From: Planctomycetota bacterium
GTDB lineage: Bacteria > Planctomycetota > UBA11346
Direction of reading: 5' to 3'
Length of the DNA: 64,000 bases
Assembly (NCBI GenBank): GCA_038213805.1
Contig: JBBQSO010000021.1
Span: forward strand, 1 to 64,000
Below the pieces are notes generated by a model, which did no database searches, had not been told where the DNA came from, and was given only the letters and a program-made list of their open reading frames with translations. Numbering within the stretch: the first letter of the stretch is position 1; each line of letters opens with the position of its first letter. A program made the translations under genes and the position numbers. This document shows, piece by piece, positions 9,969 to 27,319 of the stretch.

Positions 9969-10733
9969 ATGCCGACCTTCGCCCTGCTCCTGGCCTATGA
10001 CGGCACCGCCTTCGCCGGCTGGTGGCGGCAGGCGGGGACGCGGACGGTCGCCGGCGAACTTGACGCGGCGTGCGCGCGGCTGGGCGAACCGGAGGCGCGC
10101 GCCGTGGGGGCAAGCCGGACGGACGCGGGTGTGCACGCGCGCGGACAGGTCGCGCACCTGGTCACGCGCCGCGCGTGGGGCGTGGGCGAGCTGGCGCGGG
10201 CGCTCGCCCTTCAGCTACCCGGGGATATCGCCTGCCGCGCGGTCGCGCCCGTTTCCGACGACTGGCACGCCTGCCATGCGGCGACCGGCAAGACCTACCG
10301 CTACACGCTCGACAACGGCGCGGTCGGCGACCCCTTCGTGGGTCACCACGCCTGGCGACCGCCGTTCCGCCTCGCGCCCGCCGCGCTGCGCGCCGCCGCC
10401 ACCGGCGTCTCCGGGCGCCGCGACTGGCGCGCCTTCGCGCGCCGCGGCGACGCGCGCGCTGATCTGGTGCGCACCCTGACGCGGGTCGAGTGGACCGCGC
10501 ACGGCCCGCAGCTGATCTGCACCATCGCCGGCGAGGCCTTCGTCTACCGTCTGGTGCGCAGCCTGGTCGGTGCGATGGTCGCGGTCGCGCACGGCGGCTG
10601 CACGCGCGCCGAACTCGACACCGCGCTCGCTGGCGAGCCATCGCCCGCCGGCCGCCAGCAGGCCCCCGCGCATGGACTGTGCCTGGACGAGGTGGACTAC
10701 GCGACGCCGCCCGCGTGGGTCCTCCCCGGTTGA
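9969..10733 (+). CDS. truA: tRNA pseudouridine(38-40) synthase
   Basis: AYDGTAFAGW, GASRTDAGVHARGQ, KTYRY, FVYRLVRSLVG, APAHGLCL; ATG at 9969. Confidence 0.93.
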   Translation: MPTFALLLAYDGTAFAGWWRQAGTRTVAGELDAACARLGEPEARAVGASRTDAGVHARGQVAHLVTRRAWGVGELARALALQLPGDIACRAVAPVSDDWHACHAATGKTYRYTLDNGAVGDPFVGHHAWRPPFRLAPAALRAAATGVSGRRDWRAFARRGDARADLVRTLTRVEWTAHGPQLICTIAGEAFVYRLVRSLVGAMVAVAHGGCTRAELDTALAGEPSPAGRQQAPAHGLCLDEVDYATPPAWVLPG

Positions 10734-10745
10734 CTCCCGCCTCGG

Positions 10746-10762
10746 GTATTACATCGTCATAC
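10746..10762. promoter_or_regulatory. Putative operator palindrome GTATTAC-ATC-GTCATAC
   Basis: Inverted repeat with one mismatch, just before the GGAG RBS of the RHH gene; TTGACT at 10730..10735. Confidence 0.55.
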
Positions 10763-10773
10763 CGGGAGCCGCC

Positions 10774-11055
10774 ATGCCTGAAAGCCCGCAGACCGTGGTC
10801 TCCTTCAAGGCCGATCGCGAACTGCTGCGCCTGCTCAAGGGCGTGCGCAACCGCTCGGCGTTCATCCGCGATGCGGTGGTCGCGGCGTTGGGCGAGCACT
10901 GCCCACTGTGCCTGGGCAGTGGCACGGTGGACAGCGAGGAGCGCCGCCGCTGGGTCGAATTCGCCGCGCACCACCCGGTCGCCGAGTGCGCGCGTTGCCA
11001 CCAGCACGTCTTCACCTGCCACCGCCGCCCGGTGAAGCACGCATGCCGGAAATGA
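10774..11055 (+). CDS. Ribbon-helix-helix (CopG-like) regulator with a Cys/His-rich C-terminal domain
   Basis: VVSFKAD strand plus NRSAFIRDAV helix; CPLC, HH, CARCHQH, CH, HAC; GGAG RBS; ATGA overlap with the next gene. Confidence 0.8.
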   Translation: MPESPQTVVSFKADRELLRLLKGVRNRSAFIRDAVVAALGEHCPLCLGSGTVDSEERRRWVEFAAHHPVAECARCHQHVFTCHRRPVKHACRK

Positions 11056-11507
11056 GCCCGCAGGCCAGCGCGCGGACGGACGCGCTCGGTTTCACCGCTG
11101 GGGCGCCGCTGCGGCTGCTCGCCGCGGCCGCTTTCGCCGTGACCGCATTCGGCGCCGTGGCCCTCGCCACCGGCGCGCCGCCGGCGCAGACGCCCGTACC
11201 AGCCGCGCCGCCAGCCGACATTGCCACCGGCATGCTCGATGTGACCATCACCGCCACCTACCCGGTGGCGTCGTGGACCGTGCAGGGGCCAACCGGCGCG
11301 CTCAGTCCGCACGTCGCCGACGCCACGCGCTGGCAGGGCGCGGTACCCTGCGCCACGGCCGGCATGGTGCGCCTATTCGTGCAGGCCGACCACCAGGATG
11401 CGCTGCACGCCGGGCCGGCGGCGCTGCGCGTGGCATGGCAGGGCGGCGCAGCGCTGGTGTGGGGCGAGGGCTTCGTCGCCGACACCGTCAGCGTGGGTGG
11501 ACCATGA
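11052..11507 (+). CDS. Hypothetical exported or membrane-anchored protein (151 aa)
   Basis: ATGA overlaps at both ends; hydrophobic N-terminal helix, Pro-rich linker, beta-rich domain. Confidence 0.75.
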   Translation: MSPQASARTDALGFTAGAPLRLLAAAAFAVTAFGAVALATGAPPAQTPVPAAPPADIATGMLDVTITATYPVASWTVQGPTGALSPHVADATRWQGAVPCATAGMVRLFVQADHQDALHAGPAALRVAWQGGAALVWGEGFVADTVSVGGP

Positions 11508-12358
11508 GCCGCGACGCGCTGGCGCTGGACGACGTCACCGTCTGCTACCGCCGCACCCCGGCGGTGCACCACCTCTCCGCGACGCTGCGCTGCGGCACGC
11601 TTACCGCACTGATGGGGCCCAACGGCGCGGGCAAAAGCACCCTGCTGCGCGCCATCCTCGGCTGGCAGCCGTTGACCACCGGCAGCATCACTTTGGGCGG
11701 CGTGCCGGCGCGGCGCGCGCTGGCCCGCATCAGCTACCTGCCGCAGCGCAGCGCGGTCGACTGGGACTTCCCCATCACCGTGCGCGAGGTGGTGGCGATG
11801 GGCCGCTATCAGAGCCGCGGCCTGTTCGCGCGTTTTACAGCGGCCGACCACGATGCGGTCGCGGATGCGCTCACCGAAATGGACCTCGCCTGGCTGCAGG
11901 ATCGCCAGATCGCGCAGCTCTCGGGCGGCCAGCAGCAGCGCACCTTCCTGGCGCGCGCGGTGGCCTCGGGCGCCGACGTGTTCCTGCTCGACGAGCCCTT
12001 CGTCGGCCTCGATCCGACTTCGACCGCAGACCTCGTGCAGCGCCTGAACACCTGGGCGGCGCAGGGTCGCCTGGTGGTGGCGGTGGTGCATGACGTCGCA
12101 CTGGCGCGCGCGCATTTCCAGGAAGCGCTGCTGGTGGCGCGCAGCCTGGTCGCCGCCGGTCCGGTCGCCGCGACCCTGGCCGACGCGAACCTGGCGCGCG
12201 CGTATGGCGCCGCCTGGCCGCTGGCCCGGCCGCAGGCCGATCAAGCCCTCGCCCTGCCCGATCTCGGCGGCGTGCTGCGGACCCAGGCGCGCAGCGCCCC
12301 ACGCCCGACCGCCCAGCCCGGTACCAGCGCGGTGCGCCCGGCGGAGCGCCGACCATGA
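11504..12358 (+). CDS. Zn/Mn-type metal ABC transporter ATPase (ZnuC-like)
   Basis: GPNGAGKST, YLPQRSAVDWDFPITVREVV, LSGGQQQR, LLDEPF, VHD. Confidence 0.92.
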   Translation: MSRDALALDDVTVCYRRTPAVHHLSATLRCGTLTALMGPNGAGKSTLLRAILGWQPLTTGSITLGGVPARRALARISYLPQRSAVDWDFPITVREVVAMGRYQSRGLFARFTAADHDAVADALTEMDLAWLQDRQIAQLSGGQQQRTFLARAVASGADVFLLDEPFVGLDPTSTADLVQRLNTWAAQGRLVVAVVHDVALARAHFQEALLVARSLVAAGPVAATLADANLARAYGAAWPLARPQADQALALPDLGGVLRTQARSAPRPTAQPGTSAVRPAERRP

Positions 12359-13275
12359 GCGAACTGCACGACTGGCTCAGCGCGCCGTTCGCGCCCGAGC
12401 ACCGCTTCCTGTGGCGGGCGCTGCTGATGTGCGCGCTGCTCGGCGCCAGTGCCAGCCTGCTCGGCTGCGTGCTGGTGGTGCGCCGGCTCTCGCTGCTCGG
12501 CGACGCGCTGGCGCACTCGCTGCTGCCCGGCGTTGGCCTGGCCTGGCTGATGTTCGGTACCAGCCTGGGCGCGCTGTTCATCGGCGGGCTCGCCGCGGGG
12601 CTGCTCACTGCGCTCGGCAGCGGCGTGCTCAGCCGCCTGACTCGGGTCAAGGAGGACGCCTCCTTCGCCGGCCTGTTCCTCACCCTGTTCGCGCTCGGCG
12701 TGGCCCTGGTCAGCCGCGTCGGCACGCCAGTCGATCTGCTGCACGTGCTGTTCGGCAACATCCTCGGCATCACCGGCGCCGACCTGTGGCTGGCAGCCGG
12801 CGTCTCGACCCTGACCGTCAGCGCCTTCGCGCTGTTCTACCGCGCCATCCTCATCGAGTGCTTCGACCCCTCCTACCACCGCGCCTGCGGCGGCCGTGGC
12901 GCACTCACCCATCTCGGCCTGCTCGCCCTGATCGTGCTCAACTTGGTCGCCGCGCTGCACGCACTGGGCGGCGTGCTCGCTCTCGGCCTATTCATGCTGC
13001 CCGCCGTCACCGCCTACCTGTGGTGCGACCGCTGGGGGACCATGCTCGCCTTCTCCGTCGTCTATTGCGTCCTCGGCGGGGCACTGGGCCTGCTGCTCAG
13101 CGTGCCCACCGCGCTGGCTTCCGGACCGTGCATGGTCGGCGTGCTCGGCATCGGTTTCCTCCTGTCCGCAGTGCTCAGCCCGCGTCACGGCCTGCTCGGC
13201 CGCCTGCTGCGGCCGCACCACCATCATAATGAGCATGGGGATGAGGAGGGCGTGATGCCGGGGCATAGGCATTGA
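12355..13275 (+). CDS. Zn/Mn-type metal ABC transporter permease (ZnuB-like) with His-rich tail
   Basis: RRLSLLGDALAHSLLPG, LFGNIL, FDP; C-terminal HHHHNEHGDEE...GHRH. Confidence 0.92.
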   Translation: MSELHDWLSAPFAPEHRFLWRALLMCALLGASASLLGCVLVVRRLSLLGDALAHSLLPGVGLAWLMFGTSLGALFIGGLAAGLLTALGSGVLSRLTRVKEDASFAGLFLTLFALGVALVSRVGTPVDLLHVLFGNILGITGADLWLAAGVSTLTVSAFALFYRAILIECFDPSYHRACGGRGALTHLGLLALIVLNLVAALHALGGVLALGLFMLPAVTAYLWCDRWGTMLAFSVVYCVLGGALGLLLSVPTALASGPCMVGVLGIGFLLSAVLSPRHGLLGRLLRPHHHHNEHGDEEGVMPGHRH

Positions 13276-13280
13276 TTGCG

Positions 13281-13371
13281 GCTGATGGCTGATGGCTGAT
13301 AGCTGATAGCTGATAGCTGATAGCTGATAGCTGATAGCTGATAGCTGATAGCTGATAGCTGATAGCTGATA
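13281..13371. repeat. Heptamer array (GCTGATG)x2(GCTGATA)x11
   Basis: 13 copies, 5 bp after the permease stop. Confidence 0.97.
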
Positions 13372-13442
13372 GCGAAACCGGCATCGGGTATTCTTGCGGT
13401 TGGATTGATCACGCAGAGTTTTCGCACTGCCCCGGACCGGGG

Positions 13443-13488
13443 GCCATCAGCCATCAGCCATCAGCCATCAGCCATCAGCCATCAGCCA
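13443..13488. repeat. Heptamer array (GCCATCA)x6.5
   Basis: Inverted partner of 13281..13371; abuts the stop of the convergent gene. Confidence 0.97.
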
Positions 13489-25159: not shown

Positions 25160-27319
25160 TCAGGGTGCCTTGGGCTGCACCGCTGGCTTGTCCGCGGGTC
25201 CGCCAGGAGCGACCGGAATGAGCGCGGCGGGATCCACGGGCGTGACGACCGCCGCGGCCGCAGCGGCGATGGCCGCGGCGGTCTTGGCTTCCAGGTCCTT
25301 CAGCTCCTGCTCGAGCTTGGCGGTCCGCTCCTTGAGCTCGCGCTCCAGGCGCGCGGTCTCGGCCGCCTGGGTATCGAGCTGGCGCTGGAGATCGGTGGCC
25401 TTGGCCTCGGCCGCAAGACGCGCGCTCTCGGCGGTCTCGTGCTCCTTGCGTGCCTGGTCGGTCGCGCGGTGCGCGGCCTGCAACTCGGCATTGGTCCTGC
25501 CCAGGCTGTCGTTGAGGTTGGCCGCGAACAGGCCGAGTCCGACCAGCGCCCCGATGCCCACCACCAGGATGAGCAGCGGTACCACCAGCGACCGGCGCGG
25601 CGGTGGCGCCACCGCGCCGCGTGCGAGCGGCACGGCGACGACCTGGCGCTGAACCGGTTTGCCGAGCGGAGTCGAGGCGGTGGTCGCCGCAGGGACCTCA
25701 TCCGCCACGACGTCTGTCGCGGGTGGCGCAGAGCGGACCGGCCCCGGCACGGGCGTCGTGACCTTCACCACGGGCAGGCGGTCGCTGCCGCGGCGCACCA
25801 CCTTGCCGACCTTCATCGGCAGCGCCGGGGTGTCGTCGCCGAGGTGGAAGCCGCCATCCTCCATGGGGGCCGTGACGGGCGCTGCGGCTGGTGGCGATTC
25901 AGGCACGGCTGCGGGTGCGGGCGTCGTGGTGCGCGCCGCGGTCCTGCCGGTCAATGCCGCCGACACCGGCGACGATTCCGCCGCGGCGACGGACACCGCA
26001 TGGATTTCAACCGTTTCGCTCGCGGGATTGCGCACAGCGTCAGGCATGCCGCCGGTGATGTCGATCGGACCGCTGTCGGCCATGGCCGCATCCGCAGTCT
26101 CAGCAGGTGCCGCCGGTTGGACGACGTTGAGCACGCGGGTGTTGCCGGTCGGGCGGCCGCCCTGACCGCTGCGCAGCACCATCTGAACGACGTTGCAGCC
26201 CGGGCAGTGGATGGTCTGTCCCGCGTACAGCGAGGGGATGCGCGCCTTGAAGCCGCAGGCGGTGCAGGTGAAACGCACCTTCTCGCCCGCGCCGGCGCTG
26301 GCGACCATGGCGGTGGCGCTTGCGCTGCCGGTGCCGGGTTCAACCGCGATTTCCGCGGCTGAACCATCGAGGCGCGTGCTGCTCACCACCTGGGTGGCCT
26401 GGCAGCCCGGGCAACGGATGGGCTTGCCCGCCAGGCTGGCGCCGAGCTTGGTGCGGAAGCCGCAGGAGGTGCAGGAGAACTCGACCTGCGGGCCCTCGTC
26501 GGCCGGCGCCTGGGCGACGTCGACCGGCTCGGCGGTGCGCATGCGGCTGATCACCACGGTGTCGCCGGTCGGCGCATGTGGCTCCTGGCGCAGGGCGATG
26601 CCGACGTGGTCGCAGGCCGGACAGGTCACCGCCAGGCCGATGTACTGGGCAGGGATGCGCGCGCGGTAGCTGCACGCCGTGCACACGAACAGCTCCTTGC
26701 CGGCGTGGCTGGCCGCATCGGCCTCGGGCGTCGGTTCCGGCGCCGGGGTCGGGGTGGGCGCGGCTGAGATGCCGGTGCCCTCGCTGACCGCGTGATCGAT
26801 GGCCACCACCTGGGGCTCGTGGCAGCCTGGGCACTTGATCGCCTTGCCCAGGTAGTGGCGGGCGAGTTGGGCCTCGAAGCCGCACGCGGCGCAGGAGAAG
26901 AGCAGGTTGCCGGGGCGCACGGTGGTGCGCGCGTTGGCCGCCGCGGTGGGCATCTTGGTGATGCTGACGGTGCGGCCGGTGCGCGGCGACGGGGTGCCTT
27001 CGCTGGTCGCGATCTGGGCGCCGTCGCAGCGCGGGCAGCGCACCGCCTTGCCCATGAAGTGGCCGGGAATGCGCGCGCGGTAGCCACAGGCCGAGCATAC
27101 GAAGAGCTTCTTGCCGTCGTCGGCCGCTGCGCCCACCGGGGTCGCGACCGGCAACGCGGGGGACGGTGCGGCTGACGCCACCGGCAGGGCGACCGTCGGC
27201 ACCAACTGGTCCGTGTTGCAGCCCGGGCAGGACATGGTCCGCCCGGCGAGGTGGGCGGGGATGCGGAACTGGATCCCGCACGACGAGCAGGTGAACGGCA
27301 TGGTCTCGGCGACGGGCAT
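25160..27319 (-). CDS. Membrane protein with six zinc-ribbon repeats, one TM helix and a C-terminal coiled coil
   Basis: Six FxCxxC(G/S)...G...CPxC units; LVVPLLILVVGIGALVGLGLFA TM; heptad-rich tail. Confidence 0.88.
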   Translation of the reverse strand: MPVAETMPFTCSSCGIQFRIPAHLAGRTMSCPGCNTDQLVPTVALPVASAAPSPALPVATPVGAAADDGKKLFVCSACGYRARIPGHFMGKAVRCPRCDGAQIATSEGTPSPRTGRTVSITKMPTAAANARTTVRPGNLLFSCAACGFEAQLARHYLGKAIKCPGCHEPQVVAIDHAVSEGTGISAAPTPTPAPEPTPEADAASHAGKELFVCTACSYRARIPAQYIGLAVTCPACDHVGIALRQEPHAPTGDTVVISRMRTAEPVDVAQAPADEGPQVEFSCTSCGFRTKLGASLAGKPIRCPGCQATQVVSSTRLDGSAAEIAVEPGTGSASATAMVASAGAGEKVRFTCTACGFKARIPSLYAGQTIHCPGCNVVQMVLRSGQGGRPTGNTRVLNVVQPAAPAETADAAMADSGPIDITGGMPDAVRNPASETVEIHAVSVAAAESSPVSAALTGRTAARTTTPAPAAVPESPPAAAPVTAPMEDGGFHLGDDTPALPMKVGKVVRRGSDRLPVVKVTTPVPGPVRSAPPATDVVADEVPAATTASTPLGKPVQRQVVAVPLARGAVAPPPRRSLVVPLLILVVGIGALVGLGLFAANLNDSLGRTNAELQAAHRATDQARKEHETAESARLAAEAKATDLQRQLDTQAAETARLERELKERTAKLEQELKDLEAKTAAAIAAAAAAVVTPVDPAALIPVAPGGPADKPAVQPKAP

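Follow-up and report, generated by a model that had tools for sequence, protein, structure and literature searches.

A putative metal-responsive ribbon-helix-helix repressor family, with a Cys/His domain and a tandem operator, at metal-uptake operons of Planctomycetota and other bacteria

Bacterial metal sensors fall into only about a dozen recognised structural families. In Zur, a structural Cys4 site stands beside a sensing His/Cys site, and adcR heads its own transporter operon (adcRCBA). Among ribbon-helix-helix (RHH) proteins, NikR is the sole metal-regulated member according to a 2019 review, which gives the E. coli NikR operator as GTATGA-N16-TCATAC (PMC7055735), with half-sites about two helical turns apart; in the searched part of a 2024 review (PMC11672702), it is likewise the only RHH-fold metal sensor. 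Here we analyse a stretch of 64,000 nucleotides from a Planctomycetota bacterium (the window; G+C 70%), in which a gene at 10774-11055 on the plus strand encodes a 93-residue protein (P0004) with an RHH-like module and a Cys/His module, preceded by a short palindromic operator candidate and followed by genes of a metal ATP-binding cassette (ABC) transporter. With a probability of roughly 0.6, we read the protein as belonging to an undescribed, widespread family of autoregulated RHH repressors in which a domain of about 50 residues, rich in Cys and His, binds a metal, probably zinc, as co-repressor. A literature search turned up no account of the operator motif or of an RHH/Cys-His protein regulating znuABC-type operons; most subscription journals lay outside its coverage, and a prior description is possible. 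A mention of CopG in a zinc paper (PMC5387054) proved to be an unrelated table row.

A two-module protein family and its candidate operator

A HMMER search over 1.84 billion representative proteins returned 224 relatives of the window protein at E<=1e-3 and 54 at E<=1e-10, while the sole match in a word-based (k-mer) protein search was a 95%-identical relative. A genome search with a six-sequence alignment as query confirmed 343 loci encoding relatives. Locus counts below cover the best 80 of these 343, those most similar to the window protein, and the fractions may not hold for the whole family. The 80 loci span more than 10 phyla: 47 are from Planctomycetota, 6 from spirochaetes, 5 of Desulfobacterota type, 3 each from Zixibacteria, Ignavibacteria and Bacillota, 2 each from Verrucomicrobiota and Omnitrophota, and 1 each from Sumerlaeota, Fibrobacteraceae, Methylomirabilota, Lentisphaerae and Acidobacteria, with 4 unclassified. 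All are metagenome-assembled genome (MAG) records, with no cultured isolate among them, which may explain why the family is unstudied. In databases the relatives go by "hypothetical protein", "CopG family transcriptional regulator" or "ribbon-helix-helix domain-containing protein", and two carry evident mis-annotations.

The same two modules, RHH-like at about residues 8-39 and Cys/His at 43-82, were seen in alignments of 50 family members, to which the profile counts (matches at E<=0.01) refer, and of the window protein with its 80 genomic orthologues, the 81 sequences behind the residue counts. The RHH-like module comprises an extended I/V-x-T-F-K-x-D stretch and then two helices; F11, K12, N26, R27, S28, F30, I31 and R32 are conserved in all 81 sequences. 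An AF2 monomer model of the window protein (pLDDT 80.8) places helices at 15-22 and 27-38 after an extended N-terminus, which fits a beta-alpha-alpha layout. It shows no N-terminal strand; the ribbon strand of an RHH protein would need a dimer. Pfam RHH_1 matched 17 of the 50 members and the NCBIfam RHH family aCcr1 matched 43 (best E 3.5e-8, below its cutoff), and neither database holds a family that spans the whole protein. A Foldseek comparison of the monomer model with the PDB found no similar solved structure, the top E being only 0.75. One relative (P0006, 185 residues) carries two RHH plus Cys/His modules in a naturally occurring tandem fusion, which fits a dimeric unit. Its AF2 model is poor (pLDDT below 50 over much of the first module, no intramolecular ribbon) and says nothing either way. 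Another HMMER match, P0008, has 3872 residues and was reported with 30 matching stretches. Judged by these alignments, the window protein is a member of a conserved, unnamed family.

The earlier note on this DNA had proposed a NikR-like operator with close half-sites, GTATTA-N5-TCATAC, upstream of the gene. Its letters are there, as GTATTA (10746-10751), 5 nt and TCATAC (10757-10762), and a conserved short-spaced site is indeed present. Its true form across the family is GTAWTAC-N3-GTAWTAC, each half being symmetric in itself. Against this consensus the 17-bp operator candidate of the window, GTATTAC-ATC-GTCATAC (10746-10762), has a single mismatch, a C at position 3 of the second half. By sequence and family position frequencies, half-site 1 (GTATTAC, 10746-10752) is a perfect GTA-W-TAC; half-site 2 (GTCATAC, 10756-10762) is degenerate, and a 95%-identical relative (L001) has GTCTTAC at the same place. 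The candidate is part of a wider palindrome, GGTATTAC-ATC-GTCATACC, at 10745-10763. It starts 28 nt before the RHH gene, inside the gap of only 40 nt that separates the ATG of this gene from the stop codon (TGA, 10731-10733) of a pseudouridine-synthase gene (Pfam PseudoU_synth_1) directly upstream, and it directly precedes a Shine-Dalgarno sequence read as GGGAG (10764-10768, plus strand; 5 nt before the ATG).

We found that the site is rare outside this setting. The pattern GGTATKAC-N3-GTMATACC, allowing up to 2 mismatches, occurs once in the 64 kb of the window and in none of 100 dinucleotide shuffles; the family consensus GTAWTACNNNGTAWTAC, allowing up to 3 mismatches, finds the operator candidate (1 mismatch) and no other window site. 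In the 110 nt preceding each orthologue, a single motif recurs nearly throughout. Upstream of the orthologues, the consensus with up to 2 mismatches lies within 200 nt at 74 of the 80 loci (14 perfect, 46 with one mismatch, 14 with two) and within 230 nt at 75, the extra one being L007 at -212. The remaining 683,632 nt of the same loci hold 4 matches, namely the L007 site and three 2-mismatch matches inside genes. Conservation of the palindrome upstream of orthologues had been named beforehand as the check on which the proposal could fall; the motif stands upstream of 75 of 80, and the refutation fails. Two further loci (L032 and L076) have versions with 3 mismatches. Three (L047, L051 and L070) have no operator upstream; they also lack metal genes, and no contig end intervenes.

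The position matrix is near-invariant at G1, T2, A3, T5, A6, C7, G11, T12, A13, T15 and A16, the spacer being rich in A/T. At the centres of the two halves, the bases are complementary in 34 sites and the same in 35. Because both arrangements are about equally frequent, each half must be regarded as self-symmetric (GTA-W-TAC). Two equivalent, two-fold-symmetric 7-bp units with centres 10 bp apart point to tandem RHH dimers one helical turn apart, not to a shortened NikR operator; such spacing would suit a pair of dimers that occupy consecutive major grooves along the same face of the double helix. L016, L030, L040, L071 and L079 have two or three copies of the operator, arranged in tandem or overlapping with a 10-bp register (in L040 at -82, -72 and -62); this sequence arrangement suggests higher-order cooperative binding.

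A 7-3-7 palindrome could in principle suit a dimeric winged-helix protein; the site would then be bound by another regulator, such as a Fur-family Zur, and the RHH gene would be just one co-regulated member of the operon. We consider this improbable. Across more than 10 phyla the motif accompanies the RHH gene, and it is absent where an RHH paralogue stands without metal neighbours. Moreover, individually symmetric half-sites with free centre bases suit two-fold RHH ribbons and not one dimer on a global palindrome, and the residues of the putative DNA-reading strand are near-invariant, matching the invariant half-site. The protein family and the operator very probably form a regulator/site pair for metal-uptake operons.

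The location of the operator relative to promoter elements was also examined. In 26 of 75 sites the operator is preceded by a TTGAC pentamer whose end lies 3-6 nt away, compared with 171 of 16,000 random 16-mers (about 1%). The second half-site is often GTAATAA or GTATTAA, lies about 17 nt from the TTGAC box and resembles a -10 box. In other loci, L018 and L019 among them, the operator directly follows a TATACT -10. On sequence grounds, both positions are those of a repressor. In the window, a -35-like hexamer, TTGACT (10730-10735, plus strand), overlaps the stop codon of the upstream gene and stands 10 nt before the operator, as against 3-6 nt in the 26 related loci. In nine loci of Planctomycetaceae/Pirellulales type (L015, L022, L027, L029, L043, L052, L055, L067 and L074), a conserved GGGGTAGAC(G/T)A(A/G)TC element about 10-25 nt upstream of the operator replaces the TTGACA box; it may represent a different promoter type or a second site.

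Since the window palindrome lies between two same-strand genes, it might instead form an RNA hairpin, either as terminator of the upstream gene or as an element of the 5' untranslated region. Its predicted fold (-9.9 kcal/mol) was indistinguishable from that of shuffled sequences (mean -9.61; z = -0.14), 85 of 200 shuffles being as good. There is no T-run or terminator-like site, and it is the sequence that is conserved, not the pairing. In addition, the motif lies between the -35 box and the -10 position in the 26 related loci, so that it is not transcribed there. We rate an RNA role as extremely improbable and retain the site as a DNA operator.

The Cys/His module, neighbouring genes and the probable metal signal

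The 93-residue RHH protein with Cys/His motifs that the earlier note described is borne out by the translation of 10774-11055, which contains every motif named: CPLC (43-46), HH (66-67), CARCHQH (72-78), CH (82-83) and HAC (89-91). C43, C46, H67, C72, C75 and C82 are conserved in 81 of 81 sequences, H59 in 78 and H76 in 72. A CxxCxGxG motif (C43-P-L-C46-x-G-x-G) is kept throughout, with C43, C46, G48 and G50 in 81 of 81. Among solved structures it matches Anti-TRAP (E 1.4e-4) and DnaJ (E 2.6e-3), and the Pfam DnaJ_CXXCXGXG family was found in 19 of the 50 members. No second CxxCxGxG motif occurs in the 81 sequences; the second pair, C72-x-x-C75, is a simple CxxC with no GxG after it, and in 72 of 81 the next residue is His.

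In the AF2 model, the knuckle is followed by a helix (54-66) and then by a beta-hairpin (69-71, 78-80) that bears C72-x-x-C75, the C-terminal part comprising about 50 residues. H67 and C82 flank this hairpin in register (67+82 = 69+80), so they should be spatially adjacent if the model holds. A predicted complex of two copies of residues 40-93 with two Zn scored 0.26 against a mark of 0.42, which is evidence neither way. Together, C43, C46, C72 and C75 probably make a structural site comparable to a zinc ribbon or DnaJ knuckle. The candidate sensing site consists of H67 and C82, joined in most members by H59 and H76.

Next, we compared the genes next to the regulator. A same-strand downstream ABC ATPase homologous to that of the window was present at 63 of 80 loci and an ABC-3 permease at 54 of 80. 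The gap of about 1 kb between regulator and ATPase encodes a ZnuA domain in 54 of 75 open reading frames (ORFs) tested, or 55 with one added by L045; the intervening ORF was chosen crudely, and several of the 21 of 75 without a ZnuA match came from the wrong frame or from the ATPase ORF being picked. At nine loci, regulator and operator are followed by homologous multi-pass membrane proteins of 200-270 residues with His-rich ends or loops and conserved His/Cys motifs (L003 767-1561, L011 5135-5905, L016 5388-6002, L023 5302-5952, L028 5286-5999, L032 2321-3142, L053 5272-5907, L056 5203-5949 and L065 370-1173). These proteins match no Pfam family, and their nearest ESM Atlas clusters are named just "hypothetical protein". 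Judged by sequence features and position, they are candidates for a new metal importer. A TonB-receptor plug is the neighbour in L030. Of the 80 loci, 72 thus have a metal importer of one or other of two unrelated kinds; two loci with truncated ZnuA and the one TonB receptor bring the total to 75.

These neighbours bear on whether the Cys/His domain senses anything. It is possible, and in our estimate unlikely, that the RHH protein binds the operator and autoregulates while its Cys/His domain holds structural zinc only, the signal being thiol redox, another ligand, a partner protein or none. CxxCxGxG plus CxxC is the classic structural Zn(Cys)4 arrangement, as the best matches to Anti-TRAP and DnaJ also indicate, and the window, L001 and L002 have lost the otherwise near-invariant H59 while keeping the gene. 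However, six invariant Cys/His residues exceed the needs of one tetrahedral site, and importers of two unrelated kinds downstream of the same regulator are hard to explain without a metal signal. A metal is the probable co-repressor.

Which metal this might be was approached through the transporters. Aligned ZnuA-type binding proteins (52, being the 54 minus the partial matches L022 and L027) have His in 32 of 52 at the first ligand column, His in all 52 at the second and third, and Asp in 40 of 52 at the fourth. Zn/TroA types use His as third ligand where Mn-specific binding proteins use Glu, and thiolate-rich sensor sites are ill-suited to Mn(II) by established coordination chemistry. The invariant third His and the Cys-rich sensing module both argue against Mn, and the transporter is not of the NikABCDE or CbiMNQO kind. 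Nevertheless, NCBIfam Mn models (MntC, MntA) score about equal to Zn models for the binding proteins and the ATPase, with none at cutoff, a His3Cys site is the nickel site of NikR, and TroA-type His3Asp proteins can carry Mn or Fe. Sensing of Ni, Co, Fe or Mn instead of zinc is in our view unlikely. Zinc is our best guess for the sensed metal, held with about even confidence, with Ni, Co and Fe possible.

Gene and operon organisation in the window

The RHH gene is the first of four genes in an operon, followed by an ORF of 151 or 154 residues, an ABC ATPase and an ABC-3 permease. Start and stop codons overlap as ATGA at each of the three junctions (11052-11055, 11504-11507 and 12355-12358). 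The ATPase (P0002, 11504-12358, plus strand) is AztA/MntA-like by profile matches: its top NCBIfam model is the zinc ATPase AztA (205.9 bits, below the cutoff of 220), and it matches Pfam ABC_tran at 96.1 bits. The permease (P0003, 12355-13275, plus strand) is AztB-like, exceeding the Pfam ABC-3 cutoff of 20.1 with 169.6 bits and falling below that of its top NCBIfam model, AztB (198.4 against 280). The operon thus has the ABC-3 permease and cognate ATPase that mark cluster A-I metal importers, and the earlier proposal that the RHH gene heads a metal ABC operon agrees with these ATGA-coupled genes. The permease ends in a His-rich tail (HHHH..H....H.H, 13210-13272), unusual for ZnuB-type permeases; it suggests a cytoplasmic metal-binding extension.

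No ZnuA-type binding protein was found in the operon or among 44 other long window ORFs scanned. The usual operon place of ZnuA is occupied by P0001 (11052-11507, plus strand), a lineage-specific protein of 151 residues (154 from an ATG at 11043). Its N-terminal segment is hydrophobic, it matches no family, and its gene is translationally coupled to both neighbours. It has counterparts in L001 (5270-5731) and L002 (5284-5742), is 30% identical to the L002 ORF (E 2e-7), and has only close relatives (4 matches) in the protein collection. In a transporter with no binding protein of its own, it could serve as a stand-in for metal binding or as an accessory part.

Within the family, the window protein groups with those of L001 (95% identical) and L002 (53%). 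In this subgroup H59 is replaced by R (window and L001) or Q (L002), a C-terminal K-H-x-C tail (H89, C91) is present, and ZnuA is replaced by the small lineage-specific protein. The window and L001 further share the C at position 3 of the second half-site and a TTGACT box 10 nt from the site, not 3-6. This lineage may differ in its sensing site, in the metal or in how strongly control is exerted.

Two other features of the window were noted. Between the convergent permease and sugar-isomerase-like genes lie two tandem heptamer arrays, (GCTGATA)x13.3 at 13281-13373 and (GCCATCA)x6.6 at 13443-13488, where local G+C falls to about 0.53. Since the left array opens with copies (GCTGATG) that are reverse-complementary to the right array, the two could pair in a long hairpin. 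A 719-residue ORF (25163-27319, minus strand) gave weak matches, one HypA-like (E 4.7e-11) and one to a zinc ribbon (E 2.9e-8, below cutoff), and has no operator nearby; it may be another metal-related protein.

Proposed mechanism and comparison with known systems

Taken together, these results are consistent with the following mechanism. Two RHH dimers would bind cooperatively, side by side, on the two 7-bp half-sites of the 17-bp operator. Bound at a site within the core promoter or immediately behind it, the dimers would occlude the promoter of the regulator-transporter operon. C43, C46, C72 and C75 would hold a structural zinc, and H67 and C82, with H59 and H76 and possibly residues of a neighbouring protomer, would make up a metal site of lower affinity. 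Metal filling this second site, most likely Zn(II), would stabilise the DNA-binding form. The operon, including the regulator, would then be repressed at sufficient zinc and expressed when zinc is scarce. Its product would be a metal importer, usually of ZnuABC type and in some genomes the His-rich membrane protein.

What the sequences themselves establish is the gene and its family, the invariant residues, the conserved operator with its place at the promoter, and the conserved neighbours; that the protein binds this operator, how many protomers do so, that they repress, that metal is needed and which metal it is are what we infer. Several points weigh against this mechanism. The window protein alone falls below every curated cutoff (RHH_1 13.7 against 20.5 bits; aCcr1 19 against 60), and all of its Cys/His residues might serve structure only. 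The transporter components all stay below the NCBIfam equivalog cutoffs, with Mn models (Mnt) scoring about like Zn models (Azt). A scan of 10500-11200 for sigma-70 and terminator consensus sequences gave no site of either kind, leaving the window copy without a consensus promoter. This copy departs from its family in H59 (Arg), the half-site mismatch, the box distance and the missing ZnuA, so its regulation may differ or be weakened. The choice of loci closest to the window protein and of intervening ORFs, described above, counts on the same side.

In its widest form, the proposal is that of a second widespread family of metal-sensing RHH repressors after NikR, replacing Zur/AdcR as master switch of zinc uptake in Planctomycetota and at least 10 other, mostly uncultured, phyla. 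Its members would join an RHH domain to a DnaJ-like knuckle and an extra His/Cys sensing site and bind as tandem dimers to GTAWTAC-N3-GTAWTAC, with the His-rich membrane protein as a new zinc importer. We give this full version an even chance. If true, a second family of RHH metal sensors would be a new solution to metal-dependent allostery and would account for how Planctomycetota and other little-studied phyla control the uptake of zinc. The very clean 17-bp motif would let annotators predict regulons in MAGs. Two unnamed families, the His-rich membrane protein and the small ZnuA-replacing protein of the window, are flagged as candidate parts of metal uptake. With a protein of about 90 residues and a short site, the claim is cheap to test.

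NikR is the obvious system for comparison. It has the features that we predict for the family, namely an N-terminal RHH domain, a Cys/His metal site and repression of a metal-uptake ABC operon through a palindrome with GTA...TAC-type ends. By contrast, NikR has a tetrameric ACT-like metal domain, its half-sites are 16 bp apart and it controls NikABCDE. The family described here has a zinc-knuckle/ribbon-like domain of about 50 residues, its half-sites are self-symmetric and 3 bp apart (10 bp centre to centre), and its transporter is of ZnuABC type. Unlike the N16 of NikR, a 10-bp centre spacing could not accommodate a metal-domain tetramer in the middle, flanked by the DNA-binding domains. None of the 50 members matched the NikR C-terminal or NikR family models of Pfam and NCBIfam at E<=0.01. 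The NikR parallel drawn in the earlier note thus does not extend to kinship beyond the RHH fold, the top RHH profile being archaeal aCcr1 (43 of 50), while its suggestion of a zinc-ribbon-like domain in place of the ACT domain stands at the sequence level, with a DnaJ/Anti-TRAP-type knuckle present and the NikR metal domain unmatched. By these two marks, the defining C-terminal domain and the operator spacing, we judge that the window protein is not a NikR.

The operator layout resembles that of Arc, Mnt, MetJ, CopG and omega, which occupy adjacent short sites for at least two RHH dimers about one helical turn apart, overlap the promoter and are often autoregulated; MetJ needs a small co-repressor. 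These proteins are not known to have a metal-binding domain or to control metal uptake, and their sequence likeness to the family consists of the weak RHH_1 matches (17 of 50). The archaeal RHH regulators aCcr1/CdrS, the top profile match for the RHH part although below the curated cutoff, are RHH only, about 40 residues in extent, and control cell division. The DnaJ Cys-rich domain and Anti-TRAP have the CxxCxGxG zinc knuckle in common with the family; they pair two such motifs and are not known to bind DNA, whereas the family adds the invariant H67 and C82. Zur (Fur family) and AdcR (MarR family) do the job predicted here, as holo-repressors of znuABC/adcCBA-type operons, with winged-helix folds and unrelated operators; no FUR or MarR domain was detected in the window protein by Pfam at E<=1. 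By analogy, the family would combine the DNA-binding fold of NikR, the operator geometry of Arc and MetJ, and the regulatory logic of Zur and AdcR.

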